DNA of 64,000 nt, taken from positions 76,587,817-76,651,816 of the forward strand of contig NC_057711.1 of NCBI RefSeq assembly GCF_004010195.1, given 5' to 3'. The notes beneath the pieces were generated by a model. The model was not told the origin of the DNA. It made no database searches and saw nothing but the letters and a program-made list of their open reading frames with translations. Shown here piece after piece: positions 13,346-56,969 of this stretch (its first letter is position 1; each line of letters opens with the position of its first letter). This stretch comes from Chiloscyllium plagiosum. Taxonomy: Eukaryota. Both the position numbers and the translations under genes were made by a program.

Positions 13346-13497
13346 CATAGATTTTTTTGTATTTTTATAGTATGGGTTCCAACCAATGCTCATAACCATT
13401 TTATGCACGTCACCATTACCAACACAGGCCCAGCCATAGTAAATACCAGTAGTAATGTCACTTGGTAGGTTGTCTACGACACTGTCTGGGAAGTTAG
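13346..13497 (-). CDS. RFK: Riboflavin kinase, coding exon 2 (152 nt)
   Basis: cag acceptor, (A)NFPDSVVDNLPSDITTGIYYGWACVGNGDVHKMVMSIGWNPYYKNTKKSM, GTAATT donor; phase fits exon 1. Confidence 0.97.
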
Positions 13498-20154: not shown

Positions 20155-20865
20155 ATTGGTGAGTGTATTGAGTACAAGAGTTCGGATGTCATGTTGCGAC
20201 TGTACAGGACATAGGCAACTTTTGGAATACTAAGCGGTGTTCAATCCTGGACTCCTTGTTAAAGGAAAGATGTTAAACTTGAAAGGGTCCAGAAAAGATT
20301 TACAAGGATGTTGCCAGAGTTCAGAGGGTTTTTAGTTATAGGGACTCCAAATAGACTGAGGCTACTTTTTTTGGAGCATCAGAGGTGAGAGATGACCTTA
20401 TAGAAGTTTAAAAGATCATAAAGGGGCATGGCTAGCGTGAATAGCCAAGGTATTTTTCTCTGAATAGCAGAATCCACAACTAGAGGGCATAGGTTTAAAG
20501 TGACAGGGCAAGATTCACAAAAGGACCAGAGGGGCAATATTTTCACCAAGGTGGTGTGCTTATGGAATAAGCTGCCGCAGGAAATGGTGCAGTCTGATGG
20601 AAGATTTAAAAGGCAGCCAGATGGGCATACGAATAGGAGAGTTTTTAAGAGGGATCTGGGCCAAATGCTGGCAAACGGGACTGGATTAATTTACGATATC
20701 TGGTCAGCATCAAAGGAGTCGAACAGGAGACTGGAAGAACACAGGAGGTGGAGAAATCAACGTTTTGGGTATAATCCTTCTTCAGGACGAAATGTGGGGT
20801 TAGGGAGAGTTACAGATTTAAAAACAGACCGAAGGGTCGGTTTCCTGCTGTACAAAGTCTATGAG
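20155..20865 (+). mobile_element. CR1 LINE 3' fragment with a small Penelope-like insert (about 20720-20825)
   Basis: KLERVQKRFTRMLP; tail GAAGGGTCGGTTTCC..CTATGAGT. Confidence 0.8.
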
Positions 20866-21193
20866 TCAAAGTCTGCAAACAATGTGTATGTGTCCGAGTA
20901 CAATTGTTTCGCAAATCATCATTTTCTTGAGACCATTAAATTTTGCCTAAACCTTCAATAAAGAATCTAGTAAATCCAGCACATGCAACGCGTTTTGTGT
21001 AATATTAAACTGCTCTGATGCAATCCAGGGAGAGGCTCTGTGAATAGAGAAGGAACACCGAGTGGATTTACAGGAAAGGGTCTCGGCCTGAGGAGCCGCC
21101 ACTCGGTGGGCACTGACCCGGCGAGAATGTACCAGAAAACCGCCTGATCAACGGGAAAACCCGTGCCGGATTCCCCCGTGTGTCTGCCTTTAC

Positions 21194-21275
21194 CTGTGCG
21201 GATCCCCAGCTCCTTGCTGCCTCGGCCGAATCCTCTCACGACCTCCCCGCGGCAGAAATACGGCAAACTCCTCAT
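21194..21275 (-). CDS. RFK: Riboflavin kinase, coding exon 1
   Basis: ATG at 21275; MRSLPYFCRGEVVRGFGRGSKELGIRT matches the vertebrate RFK N-terminus (MRHLPYFCRGQVVRGFGRGSKQLGIPT); phase-1 GT donor at 21193-21192; GC/CpG-rich context. Confidence 0.96.
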
Positions 21276-21520
21276 GGCCGCAGCTCCGCCGCTCTCCGAG
21301 CCAGGCCCACCGACAACAGAACGCTTTATTTAAAACTGATTGATAGAGCCGGCTTCCTGCCTCCCTCCCGATTCACCGCCACTAAAACCCCACAGGATCT
21401 AATCCTCGCTCACAGGAACCGGCGTTTCAAGAAAACCCGTTACGTCAATTTCTTTTTATTTCTGGGAACGCTTCCTTCTCCGCCCTCTTGGAAACTGAGG
21501 CCAACTGGTCCTCCCAGTCC
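21276..21520 (-). promoter_or_regulatory. RFK: RFK 5' UTR / CpG-rich promoter
   Basis: CpG-rich relative to background (about 21060-21530); TTACGTCA CRE/ATF-like site at 21440-21447; GC-box-like CTCCGCCC near 21478; ETS-like GCTTCCTG near 21352. Confidence 0.65.
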
Positions 21521-21835
21521 GGCAGCGCCGCCTGCTGTGTGGAGGAAATAGTATGGCAGCGCCACCTGAGGCCTGGAGGACCTATAGGGCAGCGCCACCT
21601 GATGTCTGGAGAACTAGTATGGCAGCGCCACCTGCTATGTGGAGGATCAGTGTGGCAGTGCCACCTGATGCCTGGAGGACTATTGTGGCAGCGCCACCTG
21701 CAGTGTCACCAGATGCTTGGAGGACCACTGTGGAAATGCGACACCACCTGCTGCCTGGAGGAACAGTGTGGCAGAACTGTCAGCTACCTGGGTGATCAGT
21801 GTGACAGTGCAACCTGCACTCTGGAGGACCAATGT
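21521..21835. repeat. 33-bp tandem minisatellite (about 9 units) with a CTCF-like core GGCAGCGCCACCTG
   Basis: Unit starts at 21521, 21555, 21588, 21621, 21654, 21687, then degenerate units to about 21835; consensus about GGCAGCGCCACCTGNTGYNTGGAGGAYNAGTRT. Confidence 0.9.
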
Positions 21836-21989
21836 CATTGTATTTTTCTGCCCCATTGCTGTCTACTACCAAGTCACTAGTTCTGAAACAAGCCCATTGA
21901 AAAATCTATTTAAACAGTTTCTGTTTTCCTGATTTATGCTTTTATGACTAGTGGTTTTTGGGTTTAAAACAAAACAAACAAGTGTTTGG

Positions 21990-23170
21990 TCAAATAGGGC
22001 AAAGTCAGCATGGTTTCATCAAAGGAAGGTCATGCTTGAAAAATCTGCTAGAATTCTTTGAGGAAGTAACGAGCAGGTTAGACTAGGGAGAGTCAATGGA
22101 TGATAAATACCTGGACTTCCAGAAGGGTACAGCACAGGAGGCTGCTGAGTAAGATAAGGGCCCATGGTATTAGAGGCAAGGTGTTTGCAGATGAGCAGAA
22201 TGGAAATTGAAGGGTCTTTCTCAGAATTGCAGCTGGTGACAAATGATGTTCTGTTAGGGTCAGTGTTGGGACCACAACTTTTCACTTTGTATATCAATGA
22301 TCTAGATGAAGGAACTGAGGGCATTCTAGCTAGAGAGGCTGCAGAAAGATTTAGGAGAGTGGGTAAAGAAATGGCAGATGGAGTACAACTTGGGAAAATG
22401 GTAAGAATACAAGCATGGCCTATTTTCTAAATGGGGAGTAATTTCAGTAGTCTGAAGTGCAAAAAGACTTGGGGGTTCTAGTCCAAGATTATCTCAAGGT
22501 AAACTTGCAGGTTGAGTCAGTAATTAGGAAGGCAAATGCAATGTTTGCATTTGTTTTGAGAGGGCTTAAATATAAAAGCATGGATGTACATCTGAGGCTC
22601 TGTAAGGCTCTGGTCAGGCCTTTTTGAAGTACTATGTGTAGTTTTGGGCCCCATATCTCAGGAAGGACGTACTGGCCCTGGAGCGTGTGCAGAGGAGGTT
22701 CACGAGCATGGTCGCAGGAATGAAAAGCTTAACATATGAGGAATGTTTGAGGGCTCTGATCTATACTCGATAAAGTTTAGAAGGATGAGGAGGTATCTAA
22801 TTGAAAGATGCAGAATACTGAATGGCCTGGACAGAGTGGATGTCAGGAAGATGTTTTCACTGGTAGGAGAGACTAGGACCTGAGGACACAGCATTAGAAT
22901 AAAGGCAAGACCTTTTAGAACGGAAATAAGGAGAAACTTCTTCAGCCGGAGAGTGGTGAATCTATGGAATTCATTGTCACAGAAGGCTGTGGGGGTCAGG
23001 TCACTGAACTTTTTAAACATGGAGATAAATAGATCCTTGATTGTCAAAGGGATCAAGAGTTTTGGGGAGAAAGCGAGAGAATGAGTGAAGAAACTTATCA
23101 GCCCTGAATGAATGGAGGAGCGGACCCGATGGCCTGAATGGCCTAATTTCTGGCCTAATGTCTTATGATT
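21990..23170 (+). mobile_element. CR1 LINE 3' half
   Basis: SQHGFIKGRSCLKNLLEFFEE; GSVLGPQLFTLYINDL; TCTTATG tail. Confidence 0.88.
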
Positions 23171-40869: not shown

Positions 40870-41763
40870 ACCATGGAGCAGATAGATGGGAAAGATATGG
40901 ACAGGTCAAGAGGGTGATGCCAAGTTGGGGGCTTGGGATTAGAATAATGTTGGGGGAGGGGAATTAAGGAAACTGGTGAAATCCACATTAATCCCGTGTG
41001 GCTGCAGGGTCCCAAGGCGGTAGATGAAGCGTTTTCCTCCAGGTGTCAGGTGGTAAGGGTTTGGCAATGGAGGGGGCCCAGGAGTTGCATGTCCTTAGAT
41101 GGGGAGTTGAAGTGTTCAGCCACGGGCAGCGGAGTTGGTTAATGCGGGTGTCCCAGAGATGTTCTCTGAAACGATCCACAAGTTGGCGTTCTGTCTCCCC
41201 GATGTAGAGGAGACCACGTCGGTTGCAATGGAAACAGTAGATGACATTGGTGGAGGTACAGGTAAATTTCTGTCGGATGTGGAAGGATTGTTTGGGGCCT
41301 TGGACGGAGGTGAGGGGAGAGGTGTGGGCACAGGTTTTGCACTTCCTGTGGTGGCAGGGGTAGGTGCCGGGAGTGGGATGTGGGTTGGTGTGGGGGGGAG
41401 GGGAGTGGAGGTCGTGGATCTGACAAGGAAGCTAGGGAGGGAATGGTGTCTCCGGAATGCTGATAGGGGTGGGGAGGGAAATATGTCCCTGGTGGTGGAA
41501 TCTGTTTGTATGCGGATCAGGGGGTTCTGTCCTTGCTGCGTTGGGAGGGTTGGGATTCAAGGGCAGAGGTGCGGGAAGTAGAGGAGATGTACTGGAGGGC
41601 ATTATCGACCATGTGAGAGGGGAAATTGCGATCTTTGAAGAAGGAGGCCATCTGGGATTTTCTACGGTGGAATTGGTTATCCTGGAAACAGATGCAGCAG
41701 AGGCAGAGGAATTGGGAACAAGAGATGACATTTTTACAGGAGTTTGGGTGAGGGGAGGTACAG

Positions 41764-42002
41764 AGCTGAAAATGTGTTGCTGGAAAAGCGCAGCAGGTCA
41801 GGCAGCATCCAAGGAACAGGAGNNNNNNNNNNNNNNNNNNNNNNNNNNNNNNNNNNNNNNNNNNNNNNNNNNNNNNNNNNNNNNNNNNNNNNNNNNNNNN
41901 NNNNNNNNNNNNNNNNNNNNNNNNNNNNNNNNNNNNNNNNNNNNNTTTCCAGCAACACATTTTCAGCTCTGATCTCCAGCATCTGCAGTCCTCACTTTCT
42001 CC
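41764..42002. mobile_element. Family A fold-back mini-element (N gap at centre)
   Basis: Inverted arms; 15-bp duplication TGAG(G/A)GGAGGTACAG at 41749-41763 and 42003-42017. Confidence 0.85.
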
Positions 42003-42766
42003 TGAGAGGAGGTACAGTCCAGGTAGCTTTGGGAGTCATTGGATTTGTAGTAGATGTCCATGGTTAGTTGGTCACTGGATATGGCGTTGCTGAGGTCCAG
42101 GAAGGGGAGGGAGGTGTCCGAGATGGTCCAGGTGAATTTGAGGTCAGGGTGAAAGGTGTTAGTGAAGTTGATGAACTGTTCAAGCTCCTCGTGGGAGCAC
42201 AAGGTGACGTCGATACAGTCATTGATGTAGCCAAGGGAAAAGTGGGAGTTGGCACCCGTGTAGCTGCAGAAGATGGACTGTTTCAGATACCCAGCAAAGA
42301 GGCAGGTATAGTTGGGCACATGCGGGTGCTCTTGGCTACCCCTTTGGTCTGGAGGAAGTGGGAGGATTCAAAGCTTGAACAGTTCATCAACTTCGCCCAC
42401 ACCTTTCACCCCGACCTCAAATTCACCTGGACTACAACTCCTCCCACCCTACCTCCTGTAAAAATGCCATCCTTTCTTACTAATTCCTCTGCCTCTGCCT
42501 CACCTGTTTTCAGGATGACCAATTCCACCTTAGAAAATCCAAGATGGCCTTTTAAAAAGACCGTTCCCTCTGTGACTCGCTCATCAGATCCAAGCCCCCC
42601 AACAGACCACACCCCACTCGCAGCACCTCTCCTGCCACCACAGGAAGTGCAATGCTTACACTCACACCACTCCCCTCACCTCCATCCAAGACCCCAAAGG
42701 AACCTTCCACATCCGACAGCAATTTACCTGTACCTCCACTAACATCATCTACTGTATCCATTGCCA

Positions 42767-51018: not shown

Positions 51019-52455
51019 TGTGATGATTCTGTGACTTTAGAAGGTGTATTTTGTCCTTTTTTTTAACGAAGAAAAATTGAGAGAGAGGATTGAGCAATCT
51101 ATGCAGAGCTATTGGAGTAAGTAGTTTGTGATGTCTTGGGTTTTTCAAAAGTAGGAACAATTGAAGCAGCCTAAATGGGTGGGGCCAGCTCCCACAGAAC
51201 TGGGATTTTTTTTTCAGCAACAGTTGTTGCTGGGGTCTCAGCAGGGTTTGGAAACTGCAGTCTTTTTTTTCCCTGCTACACTCTCAGAGTTTTCTCTTGA
51301 TATTTTTCCTTCTGCTGCTGGAGTTGCATGTGAGACAATCTGTTTTCTGAATTTGCCTTTGTCAAGGGTATGTTTATGGGATGTTTACTGTATTGGAACA
51401 GTTATTGTTTAGTAGCAAAATAATCTACTATTCTGTTAGCTTTCCAATAGGGTTAAAGCTAAGTCAACTCTTTTCTTTATTTTTTTTCTTCTGTTTATTT
51501 TGACTATAGTGTACGAATAAAGCTTGTTTTGCTTCAAATCTGATAGATTGACCAATCAAATTGCATCTGGAACATAACACCTGATCGAATCTTGAGAAAA
51601 TTTGTAGCTAAGGTTGAGGTTCTGGATGTAGGTTTGCTCGCTGAGCTGGAAAGTTCATTTCCAGACGTTTCACCCTACTAGGTAACATCTTCAGTGGGCC
51701 TCAGGTGAAGCACTGCTTATAAGTCCTGCTTTCTATTTATATATTTGGGTTTCTTTGGGTTGGTGATGTCATTTCCTGTGGTGAAGTCACTTCTTGTTCT
51801 TTTTCTCAGGGGGTGCTAGATGGGGTCTAACCCGATGTGTTCAGTTGGAATGCCATGCTTCTAGGATGCAACAAGCAAAACTAATGTCATTTACAAAATA
51901 CTGTTCAGGGACTGTAACAAACACTACATTGGACAAACAGGCAGAAAATTTGTCACCAGGATACATGAACACCAATTAGCCACAAAAAACATGACCCTCT
52001 CTCACTAGTATCCTCACATACGGATGAGGAAAGACACCACTTAGACTGGGACAACATATCCATCCTCGGACAAGCCAAACAAAGACACGCACGAGAATTC
52101 CTAGAAGCATGGCATTCCAACTGGAACACATCGAGTTTGACTCCATCTACCACCTCTGAGAAAAAGAACAGGAAGTGACTTTACCACAGAAAATGACATC
52201 ACCACAGGAAATAACATCACCAACCCAAAGAAACCTAAACATATAAATAGAAAGCGGAACTTATCAGCAGTGCTTCGCATGAGGCCCACTGAAGATGTTA
52301 CCTAGTAGGTGAAGAAACATCTGGAAATGAACCTTCCAGTTCAGTGAGCAAACCTACATCCACAACACATTATGCTTACCCCTGAAATAAGAAAAGGTTA
52401 GGGTCTAGACTATCTTCTAAATATATTTTGAGGGAGTTTGGTCTGGTCCAAAACA
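51019..52455 (+). mobile_element. Solo LTR (Gypsy-like), interrupted by a Penelope-like element
   Basis: TGTGATG...CAAAACA ends, 4-bp flanks TTAC/CTAC, AATAAA at 51515-51520; the 3' end matches the reverse complement of 61160-61320. Confidence 0.7.
51581..52362 (+). mobile_element. Penelope-like element (family B): GIY-YIG fragment between inverted terminal repeats
   Basis: 51871 onward TSKTNVIYKILFRDCNKHYIGQTGRKFVTRIHEHQLATK..REFLEAWHS; 51624-51865 is inverted at about 52100-52361. Confidence 0.9.
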
Positions 52456-53639
52456 CTACCATCCTTCATGAAACTGCATTTATCCCAATTAAGGCCCTGT
52501 TCCTGATTAACCAACTACTTTAGATGATTCTTATCTTTCAACTCTGTACTGGCCTATGCACAAAGTCTAGCAAGTGGGAAAAATATACTGATACACTCAA
52601 GCTCATCCTAAAACACAGAGGCATTGACACCATTTACTTGGAGGAGCATCCTGGCATTCTGATCCATCTCTGATCCATCAAATCCTAAACCTGTCTGTGG
52701 CTCAGTGACTGGACTGTGGGATGGAATAGTGGCTGCAAAGGAAGGAAACGTAAACCAAGTTATAGCATTGAATTCCATTTCTGCACACAGCAACATGCCC
52801 CTATTGCAGAGAAACTTGTGGATCCAAAGTTGTGTTCCTTAGTTATTTGACGACACACATCGCCTAACAGATGTCATCTTCAATTCTAAAAGATTGCAAC
52901 TGACACTTAAAAATGACCCTAATATTTACAGAATAATATATGACCAAGTTTGTAAAATTAAACTGCGTGCCAACATTCCCACATGTCAGTGTTAATGATA
53001 AATTTATATAATTTATAGGTACATTTCTGTGTATGGACATGGAAAATAAAATAAGGAACATTTGTTAACCACAGGGTATTTGAACAAAAACACATAAAGC
53101 TATACTTGATGAATTCTATGTTAATTGATTCAATGTATTTTTAAAAAATATATTAAAATTGCTTAATGCATTTCAGGGCTAACATTTGCCATGGATGAAT
53201 GAATTACACCAGCATCAATCAAATGGATCTTGCTAAGAGATTAAATGTAGGAACAGGAATAAATAAGCTTTCTCATCATACTTGCATGAATAACAGGATG
53301 ATTAGGTATAGTCAGTTTAGGATGAAACGGATAGGAGGCACATAAATACAAGCGAACTGTTTCTGACAGTTGGTGAGTCTAGAAGGAGAGCCAATCCCAT
53401 GTGATAACATGTAAGAAAATAAGAGGGTAGGAGAAATAGCTTTACCCACAGTTGTGAGTTGTGCAATTCACTTCCAAAATAAGTGTTGAAGGCAGAAACA
53501 ATGTCAACATGCAAAATTAAATTGAATAGCAGGATGATGGAAAATAAAGATTTAGAAGGGCTTGGGAACTGGGTGAATAAATACAATAACTATTTTCTGA
53601 TCTGGATTGTATGGCCACAGTTTGAAAATCTGCCATCTA

Positions 53640-54560
53640 TGGTCTAAGGCGGGGCGTGATGTACATTGTTGGAAATGCTGTGAACTCCTCATGCACTTAG
53701 GAGATTCATTGATTTGAGCTGGGACTGCAGCCCAGTCCAATCGCGCCAAATTTTGCTGTAATTCAGGAAACGGCTAGAATTAATTCGAAGAGAATGTCCT
53801 TATGCCATTTGTCTCTACCAGTCGCCGACAGTTTCGCAAAAGTCAGCCGTGCACCATCATAAAGTGCAAATCCCAGCCAATGCTAAAATCCTACTGCAAT
53901 CACGATCAAAGGTGAAAATATTTTTTTTCAGTGCAGCTCTGAATTAGCTGTTCTCTTTGCCAAACACTGCCAGGTAAAATGCGAAATCATGCGTCATAGT
54001 ATATTTGTGTGCTTCTCGAGGTGGGTCGTGCTAACTCATCGTCATCAAGGGAAACTGACTTCCTCTTTACGGTTGATATCGGGATTGTGCTATGGCAACT
54101 TCTCTTATTTCCACTGCAATTACATTACTGATGCTGCTGCAAGGAGTCTGAGGGCGGTAGGGGGCGCCCACACCCGCCGATGGAAATCAACGGTAACTGC
54201 AGCGACAGTGAACTGGAAAGTGAGAAGAGGATATGGTTTCGCTGACTGATCGCCGTCACTCAGCCGGAATTCAACAGACAGTCGACTTGGGTTAGGAAAC
54301 AACTGCAAAAAGAGCCCTATCAAAGAGAGACGAAGAGCCCCCACGCCCTACAATAAAAGAGCAGTCGCAGATGCAAGGTCATGTCGTAGCCAGTATTCTC
54401 CATTCTCCCAGCTAGTCAGCTTCGCAGCCGCAGTTTCACTGAGCTCTCGGCAACAGCCTGACACAGAAGCCAACAGGAACAACATGCTGCTGCCGTCTCG
54501 ACCTGACCGCGAAGACGCAAGGAGCTCCAACATTGCCTGGGCATTGATTTGACTGTGAGT
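53640..54560 (+). promoter_or_regulatory. CpG-rich putative promoter and non-coding first exon of a downstream gene
   Basis: CpG retention far above background; GGCGGGGCG near 53647, CCAAT near 53737 and 53877, GGGCGG near 54152; donor-like CT|GTGAGT at 54555. Confidence 0.5.
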
Positions 54561-56969
54561 TAAATTTACTCTTTCAGATCGGTTTTTAAACTTTACGTGT
54601 TGCTACCGAAACTTGAGATTCGAATTCTCCCTGAAAAATTTAGTTTTCATTGTACGTTTAAGCTTTGCATCCAAGGAGCACAGTAAAAACGCTTACAAAA
54701 TACACAGGCATGCTTTGTTCTACGTGTTTTGATGCAGTTTCCTGACATTGGTTCCATTTTAACATGTTTCTTTAAAAGTGAACTTATTACACAGAGCTGC
54801 TGAACAGAGTTGCAGGAAATATAAATTAACTAGATATTTAGTTCATGTCTTGCAAAACTGTTACAGCAGCTCGTTGTGTTTGACTAAACTGTATTGACTC
54901 TGTTGGTGGCCTGAACAGTGGAGCAAGAAAAATTGATGAGTTTTAAGGAAGAGGATTTTGTCACCAAATGGAATCTAATTTTATTAGAAATGAATCAGAC
55001 AAATACTGTATCTAGATGGATGAAATGAATGAAAATCTTTGCCTGTCGGTAGCAGTTATGACATTCGAAGGACAATAGCCGTCTTACAATAGACACTGGT
55101 AATGCCATCCACTAGTTTCAGATCTAAAGGCAGAGTGCATTCGAGGAAGATCCTTTCAATAGTATCACGCCAGGATAATAATGCAAAGTATATTAAGCCA
55201 ATCAATTCAAATTCTTCTGCTAACAGCAATGTGAAAATACATGTAGAATCGGCAATTATTAAAAGCGTGGATGTTTGCTTTTAACTGTTCCCATGTACTC
55301 CTGACCTCTGCTGTAGATGGGTGTAAGATGTCCTGAAGTAGTGTCACATTTTCTGCTATTGATTTCTTTATTGGGTTCCAAGCAGTTCTTCCAGGGAGTG
55401 AATGACTTTGAGGAATGATGACATTTCCAGCTTGTTGGGTATGCTGACGGGTTGGATTTCTTTCACAGGACAACGCTTCTTTACCTATCATGGTCTCACG
55501 GCTCGCCTCATCCTCTCGATATTTAGCCGGGCATTGAAGTTGCCAGGATCTAATTTAAATCCAAACGCAGTTTTTTTTTATATATATGATGGGCATTATA
55601 GATCACAATTCGCTTCTGCCTTTCAAGCATTTCGTAGAAGTGCCGGAGAGGCCCTTCGGCCCATTAGCCTCTCCCGCCGAGAGTATACACCTCATAGACT
55701 CGTCCACTTTCCCGAAGTAGGGCGTGTATCGTGGTCATAACTTCAAACGCATTTAGGAGAAAACCATAATGGTCCAGGTTACTATAAAGCTCAGGGTTAC
55801 AGCAGCATGACATCAGAATGAAGTCCAAGGTCCATGAAGACAGCAGTAGGCTATTCAGCGTTTGGAATCTGCCCTGCCATTAAATTGTGAACGATCGGAA
55901 TAAGAACCGAAAGAACTGTGGAAGCTGAAAATCAAAAACAAAAAAAAAACCATAACTTGCTGGAAAAGCTCAGAAGGTCTGGCAGCATGAATGGAGAGAA
56001 ATCACTTAATTCTTTGGGTCGACCTTTCACCTTGCCAGACCTGCTGAGTTTTTCCCAACCATAACCCTTGTCCCTCTTGCCTGTCAATTCATGGTGGGTC
56101 TAAAGTTAGCTATCGAGCCTTGAAGTCCTTGAATTTACATGCGATAGATATGTAAACATTGTGATAAAATAATTCCAGCAGCTAAAGATAAAAAAGGCAG
56201 AGAAGCAAAGCTTACTATCGTGTTTGTACAACTGTAGCAGTGTCCGACGGAGAGTACAGAAGTCTCTCAGTGATATTTCCTAGCAAAATTGGTGTAAAGC
56301 TGACACGTTATTTCCAATAATCATATTCTAGTATTGATTAACTAATAATTGCGTGAAATATGATGGTTAATCCTGTTTCTTTCCATTGCTGATAGTAAGA
56401 GGAAGCAAAGTCTCCTTGAATAAAAGGAATTGACTTGTGAAAATATCAAGTTATTTACGGAAGGGATCAGGAATAATAAATCTGACACCGGGAAATTACT
56501 ATGCATAGTAAAAGTGGTCTTTGAGAAAAGATAATCAAACAATAAAATTAGCTATCAGCATAATAAGTATCAGACGTCAGGTTATGCAAATACAGATACT
56601 CTTTTGAGATTTTGTGAAGAATGAGTCATATTTAGTCGCTGAATTTGCTGTAAATTTCTTCACATACACAAAAGAGATGCCACTGCCTGTCAAGAGAAAT
56701 TATTGAAATATAGTGTCTTGCAAGGATGTGGTACTCAATGTTGCCGTGAGTGACTTATAAATATTCAACAGTTCTACGTTCATTGCCTTCTGAGGCTGAG
56801 TTATAAAATTACATGACCCTCTGAGAGGAAAAAAAATCTCTCCATCTCTGTCATATAAGGAAGTCACCTAATCTTTAAAAACAGGACCTTAGTTCTGGAC
56901 TTATTCACAAGAGGAAACTTTCCTTTCATGCCCACTTTGTCAAGACTGTTCAGGATCTTAAATGTTTTA

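Follow-up and report, generated by a model that had tools for sequence, protein, structure and literature searches.

Co-oriented CTCF-like cores and a spaced GGAGG word in a minisatellite at the edge of the RFK CpG island of a shark

What a minisatellite built of CTCF-like motifs may be doing beside a housekeeping promoter is the question raised by a locus of Chiloscyllium plagiosum, which we have analysed within a window of 64,000 nucleotides (the whole stretch of DNA; its coordinates are used throughout). A preliminary description had seen about nine units of a 33-bp repeat some 250 bp upstream of the RFK start codon and had read them as an insulator. The anatomy was borne out, with nine units plus a 12-bp partial duplication lying 246 bp from the ATG (Table 1). 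TRF called a 33-bp period at 21521-21700 (5.4 copies, 76% matches), and anchoring on the core extends the array through degenerate units to 21835; the four 16-mers cited in the preliminary description are the minus strand of U1, U3, U4 and U5. RFK exon 1 matched human riboflavin kinase (E 6.7e-11) and exon 2 is the sole flavokinase match reported for the genome. A single base at 21198-21200 (minus strand) sets exon 1 apart from the human protein: in the GIPT stretch Pro is replaced by Arg, which is either an error of the assembly or a true change in the only reported RFK copy. Between the RFK start and the array lie what we take to be a CRE-like TTACGTCA (21440-21447) and a GC box (21480-21485). 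The array sits at the edge of the RFK CpG island, with a CpG o/e of 0.76 at 21401-21600, 0.19 at 21601-21800 (within the array) and 0.0 further out; the interspersed repeat that adjoins it is presumably LINE-like.

Table 1. Features of the RFK locus (window coordinates, except for the window itself; bit scores with the reconstructed CTCF matrix)
Feature	Position	Strand	Remarks
Window	G000:C2:76587817-76651816		
RFK exon 2	13346-13497	-	open frame
RFK CpG island	20601-21600	.	CpG o/e 0.68-0.97 per 200-bp bin
RFK coding exon 1	21194-21275	-	ATG at 21275, GT donor 21193-21192
Inverted spacer word (TCCTCC 21509-21514)	21504-21517	+	ahead of U1, 11 bp from core
33-bp minisatellite, 9 units + 12-bp partial duplication	21521-21835	-	cores read on minus strand, toward RFK
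U1	21521-21554		
U2-U5	33-bp steps, ending 21686		
U6, 12-bp partial duplication	21687-21698		
U6b	21699-21731		5 additional bases before U7
U7	21737-21769		
U8	21770-21802		
U9	21803-21835		
Promoter-proximal cores U1-U6, 19-mers from 21523, 21557, 21590, 21623, 21656, 21689	21523-21707	-	8.6-15.5 bits
Distal decayed units	21699-21835	-	U7 12.1; U6b 2.5, U8 -6.0, U9 -2.5; core CpG lost in 4/4
TGGAGGA, first copy	21540-21546	+	6 bp from 9-bp core
TGGAGGA, later copies	21574, 21607 (one change), 21640, 21673, 21718, 21756, 21822	+	
Interspersed repeat adjoining array	21980-23170, bounds approximate	+	22-kb bin wholly covered by matches in other loci

The array does not appear to be a piece of a dispersed satellite, a possibility that the preliminary description had itself named. 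Against the 3.56-Gb assembly the array DNA returned only its own locus, in a search that skips very common words, and the core 14-mer had no match with up to three mismatches elsewhere in the 64-kb window. The exact unit pattern has six matches in the genome, four in the array and two solitary, and no multi-copy element with common flanks was found, only a 20-base match to one retroelement copy. A dispersed MITE-like element with the exact layout of RFK was also rejected (9 rows from 3 loci and 7 from 5). There was no sign of a structured non-coding RNA: Rfam gave no match at E<=0.1 in 20500-22500, and DNA fold z was -2.06 for U1 with its inverted word and -1.45 to +0.79 for three other stretches. 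In terms of sequence definition, with head-to-tail units of 10-100 bp that each carry a co-oriented CTCF motif, this is a CTCF-bearing minisatellite.

The description of the units as co-oriented CTCF-like sites stood up to scoring. The matrix used is a reconstruction of the counts of JASPAR MA0139.1 (column sums 908-913, self-consistent), and all scores given here refer to this reconstructed matrix. Scores were above background and all the sites point toward RFK: with the window background 7 of the 10 cores passed p<1e-4 (5 of 10 with a uniform background), those of U1-U6 having p values of 2e-6 to 6e-5, and the array holds 7 of the window's 28 CTCF matches and 4 of its top 5. As in CTCF sites generally, a 15-bp core matches the ZF3-7 motif above background. 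The passing cores are of medium strength, 8.6-15.5 bits with the window background, against a possible maximum of 29.4. The canonical upstream motif (CC at -10/-9 or -11/-10, positions from the available text of PMC10484683) is present in none of 8 RFK units, and a ZF1-type GAG at core positions 19-21 is not in the unit majority. Core position 1, the base of which is not directly contacted in the CTCF crystal (PMC10484683), is never C in RFK; C2 and A3 are majority bases (6/8 each). The core CpG occupies position 12, and according to PMC10484683 methylation there is no obstacle to CTCF. It had been described as mostly kept, which holds for the promoter side: the 5 cores (of 10) that retain it all belong to the six nearest the promoter. 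Elsewhere in the window, the best single CTCF match, 16.5 bits with the window background, is at 54151 (+), within a second CpG-rich stretch (53500-56300) and facing away from RFK, and an inverted pair of 18-bp tandem repeats (51761-51797 and 52168-52222) lies within a repeat element.

Conservation within the array follows the CTCF motif poorly. The 15-bp core shows no excess of conservation over the remaining 18 columns of the unit (0.71 in both with 8 units, p 0.49; 0.81 vs 0.68 with U1-U5 only, p 0.11) in a test of low power with few units, an outcome that the preliminary description had named as telling against its own reading, and column conservation does not correlate with motif information (rho -0.23, p 0.35). 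The statement that the spacers vary more is half true, since in TGGAGGA, a block of the spacer, 6 of the 7 columns are identical in all pairs of the 8 units. Few columns of the array vary as much as CTCF core positions 1-4 (6 changes vs 4 expected). Conservation is instead concentrated in two blocks, the right part of the core and the spacer word, in which GGAGG, 6 bp away from that right part, is equally conserved. The E-box CACCTG noted earlier is present in U2-U7, but we rejected it as the reason for the conservation, as it leaves the wider conserved block unexplained.

To see this array in context, we can look at others of its kind in the genome. A search for three cores in a row gave 353 matches, of which the 100 listed correspond to 33 loci on C1-C30; 32 were fetched, RFK being the other. 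Among these 32 loci a CpG island (o/e>=0.6, GC>=0.5) was found only on the side to which the motifs point in 9 and only behind them in 1 (sign p 0.02; two further thresholds gave 10 vs 2 and 7 vs 0), and CpG density differed between the pointed and the behind flank (Wilcoxon p 0.013, among the matches listed). There was no CpG island beside 19 of the 32, and the exceptions L082, L103 and L063 carry an island behind the motifs. When 11 pointed flanks were read, first exons oriented with the motif appeared at several loci: the first exon of TADA1 follows its array in the motif direction (E 2.4e-6), and an IBA57-type exon has a GCV_T match (E 1.7e-5) below the cut-off. Others we take to be TRUB2-, MTHFD1- and CCDC88C-like; there were also 2 unnamed ATG-to-donor exons, 3 possible non-coding exons and 1 flank that is merely another repeat. 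Pfam on 87 frames gave only 1 credible gene, and PDB had no matches for the exons at L105 and L088. As a control, the reversed pattern was found at 6 loci on C1-C30, compared with 33 for the real one among the matches listed, a ratio that we do not use because the control pattern forces CpG; an island flank was seen in 0 of 4 control arrays measurable on both sides (3 more had one side measured). Several of the arrays other than RFK score 17-24 bits, and periods range from 29 to 59 bp, therefore helical phasing is not required.

Some of these loci deserve a description of their own. L092 (G000:C12:87445200-87451700) consists of 96 near-identical 31-bp units, each of ca. 19-20 bits for CTCF and with the word at 6 bp; its CpG-rich flank is another minisatellite and no promoter, and the flank read contains no first exon. 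L074 and L108 (G000:C1:24752300-24765400) extend over several kb with the top CTCF scores seen (<=23.7 bits), without CpG island or flanking word. At L063 (G000:C88678:5800-7550) a 57-bp array with both words is interrupted by a short insertion and its motifs face away from the gene, the exon directly downstream being presumably an MTDH-like first exon. L058 (G000:C43:14355600-14357060) has the three-part layout (word, core, inverted word) in two neighbouring minisatellites, of 50 and 42 bp, located in what we take to be the last intron of a PEX5-like gene. A loose triple pattern mostly recovered a 39-bp satellite (99 of the 100 listed rows, of 1743), which is young, being near-identical at dispersed loci including G000:C1:13999259 and others on C1-C3.

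The spacing between word and core recurs outside RFK. Taking as a 9-bp core the CTCF core positions 5-13, a first search with a variable gap peaked at gap 6, but 15 of the 20 fetched loci were one retroelement family. A pattern excluding this family gave 370 matches, the 100 listed being 62 places; collapsing three repeat families (11 places with gap 12, 4 with gap 6, 2 with gap 7) and removing RFK left 47. In these independent places, among the 100 of 370 matches listed, GGAGG was at gap 6 in 11 (3 expected, p 1.2e-4 against uniform) and at gap 5-7 in 22, the spacing tests being partly post hoc. In the 46 that were fetched, of the 30 places with gap 4-7 there were 9 with an island on the side pointed to and 1 with an island behind, as against 2 and 0 of the 16 with other gaps, and the sites were tandem in 7/30 vs 0/16 (L175 and L178 did not match in this comparison).

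The word is also found inverted on the other side of the core. In RFK U1 bears it on both sides, at 11 bp rather than the 8 bp seen at other loci. Among 29 arrays (L081, L087 and L100 were dropped for having no clear tandem unit, L107 and L108 for being second blocks) the inverted word was exactly 8 bp away in 6 of 10 occurrences (p 7e-5, corrected for 19 gaps). In a fresh search 38 of the 100 listed rows (of 632) had gap 8; all gap-8 places were fetched and collapsed to two families (13 and 9 loci) and 12 singletons. With the discovery loci L200 and L127 left out and unfetched rows at other gaps treated as independent, 12 of 56-74 places had this gap vs 3.5-4.6 expected (p 1.5e-4 to 2e-3, among the 100 of 632 matches listed). 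In 4 of the 12 singletons the word was present also at 6-7 bp on the first side.

Besides recurring, the word changes little. In unrelated arrays, not selected for it, there were 8 changes vs 23.7 expected over 55 columns (p 0.0005), a change rate of about one third that of the other columns; the difference is still seen without CpG columns (6 vs 20.8) and with G/C columns only (5 vs 16.1). At L082 the word was lost on realignment in this analysis. In RFK the conservation of the word is only borderline, with 3 changes vs 5 expected (p 0.27), or 1 vs 5 (p 0.045) when U8 is left out, and all these constraint p values may be inflated, as the column permutation ignores block-wise homogenisation. 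All 11 arrays with the word at these gaps are CpG-island-adjacent, whereas among the 18 that lack it only 2 are (post hoc, p 2e-6), and those with the word mostly point into their genes. Relative to the core the word occupies -3 to -7 or 22-26, as an inverted pair, its GG pairs being 3 and 6 bp closer to the core than the contacted GG pair of the upstream motif. Given that it is not at -9/-10 or 19-21, it would be read by an abutting factor or in a variant mode. As candidates we considered PRDM5, ZNF263, PLAG1, ZIC, INSM1, VEZF1 and chi-like or PRDM9-type minisatellite cores.

The full three-part layout also occurs in a dispersed family of ca. 55 bp (L181, L197, L218, L220-L222, L226, L233, L234, and also L137 and L172), mostly in CpG-poor DNA and in some cases with a second decayed copy ca. 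68 bp off. Nine of its loci share 70% identity with unrelated flanks, and the family carries GTGAG at core positions 17-21, which in the CTCF crystal are the bases of ZF2 and ZF1 (PMC10484683). This gives independent support to the central motif of the layout being a CTCF site, and the family is possibly an old repeat-derived one of strong CTCF sites.

The reading that we favour, our confidence in it only just exceeding our doubt, is that the RFK array is a locally amplified promoter-edge element composed of a CTCF-like core and GGAGG, of which the proximal units likely bind CTCF and would act as a gene-facing anchor at the island border. The pairing of core and word, recurrent at other gene starts, likely marks a protein-bound promoter edge. 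U1, with the word on both sides, would have been the seed, from which tandem duplication would have copied the core and one word outward in 33-bp steps, the distal copies becoming methylated and then decaying. CTCF is predicted to occupy U1-U6 via ZF3-7 without the upstream motif, and GGAGG to be read by a second contact, either an abutting partner protein or a variant mode of CTCF or CTCFL. So bound, the array would stall cohesin arriving from the gene side and help to hold the edge of the CpG island, although its copy number may itself be neutral. As a tentative extension, in which our doubts outweigh our confidence, there could be a composite shark promoter-edge element, made of a CTCF core and outward-facing GGAGG words (at 6-7 bp and 8 bp), read by CTCF plus a partner or by a new CTCF/CTCFL mode, directed into housekeeping genes and amplified into minisatellites independently at many promoters, that of RFK included.

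There are simpler explanations to consider. One would be that of a neutral GC-rich minisatellite, in which a CTCF-like word, there by chance or once used, was duplicated at an unstable promoter edge and is now decaying, either unbound or with inert binding. The core that is no better conserved than its spacer, the lack of correlation with motif information, the medium scores and the decayed distal units are all as this would have it, and in rodents the DXPas34 repeat persists though one vole species has lost all predicted CTCF sites (PMC3149622, as far as the available text goes). We consider it unlikely, as it would not account for solitary, unrelated loci having fixed spacings, for the word changing less often in other arrays, or for the motifs facing genes. 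Very improbable, in our view, is that the array was seeded by a short piece of an RT/GIY-YIG retroelement (we take the family to be Penelope-like) after CpG decay, with a spacing that is inherited and not functional. This abundant family, to which most of the loci fetched from the first variable-gap search belong, maps to a GIY-YIG-bearing element in the window and matches both spacings inside its coding sequence, and U5 has 20 exact bases in common with one of its copies; the RFK gaps match the family at 2, 5, 4, 1, 5, 4, 4 and 2 of 6 bases (mean 3.4). However, outside the 20-mer the RFK units match the element at 0.29 vs 0.24 expected, there is no blast match of >=50 bp over 21400-21950, the singletons and arrays are at background outside the fixed columns (0.20-0.30 vs 0.24-0.26 expected), and the element cannot supply the inverted word of U1. 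Since the resemblance of RFK to the retroelement is confined to the 6-bp gap, we regard coincidence as more probable than descent. The coding sequence of the element (window 40900-42400; L110, L235, L156) contains three CTCF-like half sites, one of which arose by CpG decay, and the element is a possible source of new CTCF sites.

The other two alternatives concern what the array would be read by and what it would be for. The main reader of the layout of word, 9-bp core and inverted word could be, in place of somatic CTCF, another protein such as its testis paralog CTCFL or a long zinc-finger factor of housekeeping promoters. In its favour, the conserved columns in RFK are the right part of the core and the word and not CTCF positions 1-4, and the word fits neither the upstream motif nor the ZF1 triplet (PMC10484683); besides, sharks have a testis-biased CTCFL (PMC7471279), and in K562 cells 171 tandem repeats, mostly uncharacterised, are bound by CTCF and BORIS together (PMC5007689). 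Yet positions 1-4 are conserved elsewhere (11 changes vs 20.8, with 1 of the 4 columns in the search pattern), several arrays reach high scores, and C2 and A3 are majority bases in RFK itself, for which reasons we find this distinctly improbable. Only a little less doubtful than the retroelement seed is the strong insulator of the preliminary description, shielding the RFK promoter from a transposon-dense region upstream. The sites are indeed co-oriented at an island edge, and the CpG gradient puts a likely methylation border within the array. But the transposon-dense zone supposed to start near 22 kb was not borne out: repeat cover (minimum values, estimated by similarity to the fetched loci) is 0.52 in the RFK intron at 16-21 kb vs 0.32 at 22-27 kb, therefore there is no step at 22 kb, and it is 0.35, 0.40 and 0.35 in the thirds of the window. 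According to PMC12885311, CTCF insulates most strongly toward the side that lies downstream of its motif, and as the motifs point into RFK the best-insulating side faces the gene and not the repeats. With medium scores, without the upstream motif typical of insulators (PMC12885311), and with neither a step-up in repeats nor a strong side facing them, the case for a shield is weak; by inference from the motifs, the geometry would be more in keeping with an anchor near the promoter that faces the gene than with a barrier to the repeats upstream.

CTCF-bearing minisatellites are already known, therefore a single array at RFK is modest news, and what matters is the common spacing rule across arrays. 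If the spacing reflects protein contact, there would be a third kind of CTCF flank or a partner of fixed geometry. The rule would make it possible to test concretely why anchors or methylation borders form at some promoter CTCF sites only, with the arrays as a natural mutagenesis series. The CTCF motif is reported to be unchanged since lampreys (PMC5504073), and shark CTCF ChIP-seq has been published, as cited in PMC7471279; the available text of PMC7932699 contains no shark ATAC data, and among the best-ranked literature matches we found no publication on CTCF minisatellites in sharks.

The extended CTCF sites already described (PMC10484683, PMC12885311, PMC11472169, PMC13470930, PMC5504073) consist, as here, of a core and a flanking word at a fixed distance. 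However, in the extended site the contacted GG of the upstream motif is at -9/-10 and the GAG of ZF1 at 19-21 (PMC10484683). The available part of PMC11472169 reports the upstream motif only, and in that of the motif-grammar paper PMC13470930 neither GGAG nor CCTCC occurs (figures aside). Human CTCF sites up to 300 bp upstream of starts prefer the forward orientation (bioRxiv 10.64898/2026.01.05.696797), a bias that the RFK array and most of the island-adjacent shark arrays share; the human ones are single, with flanking motifs 2, 2' and 3, of which motif 3 may relate to the downstream word.

By its sequence the RFK array belongs to the same type as DXPas34 and the VNTRs of K562 cells. The CTCF/BORIS VNTRs (PMC5007689), which form staggered cluster sites, likewise consist of short tandem units, each with a partial CTCF signature, that together give a cluster of sites. 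Those VNTRs are validated by ChIP, and the available text on them reports neither a position at a promoter edge nor a polarity toward genes nor a flanking word at a fixed distance. Mouse DXPas34 at the Tsix promoter (PMC3149622) is also promoter-adjacent and made of CpG-containing monomers, of 30-34 bp, with one CTCF site each. It is a single rodent locus of X inactivation, whereas RFK has an autosomal-type housekeeping promoter and, unlike DXPas34, its array is one of many unrelated arrays with a common spacing rule.
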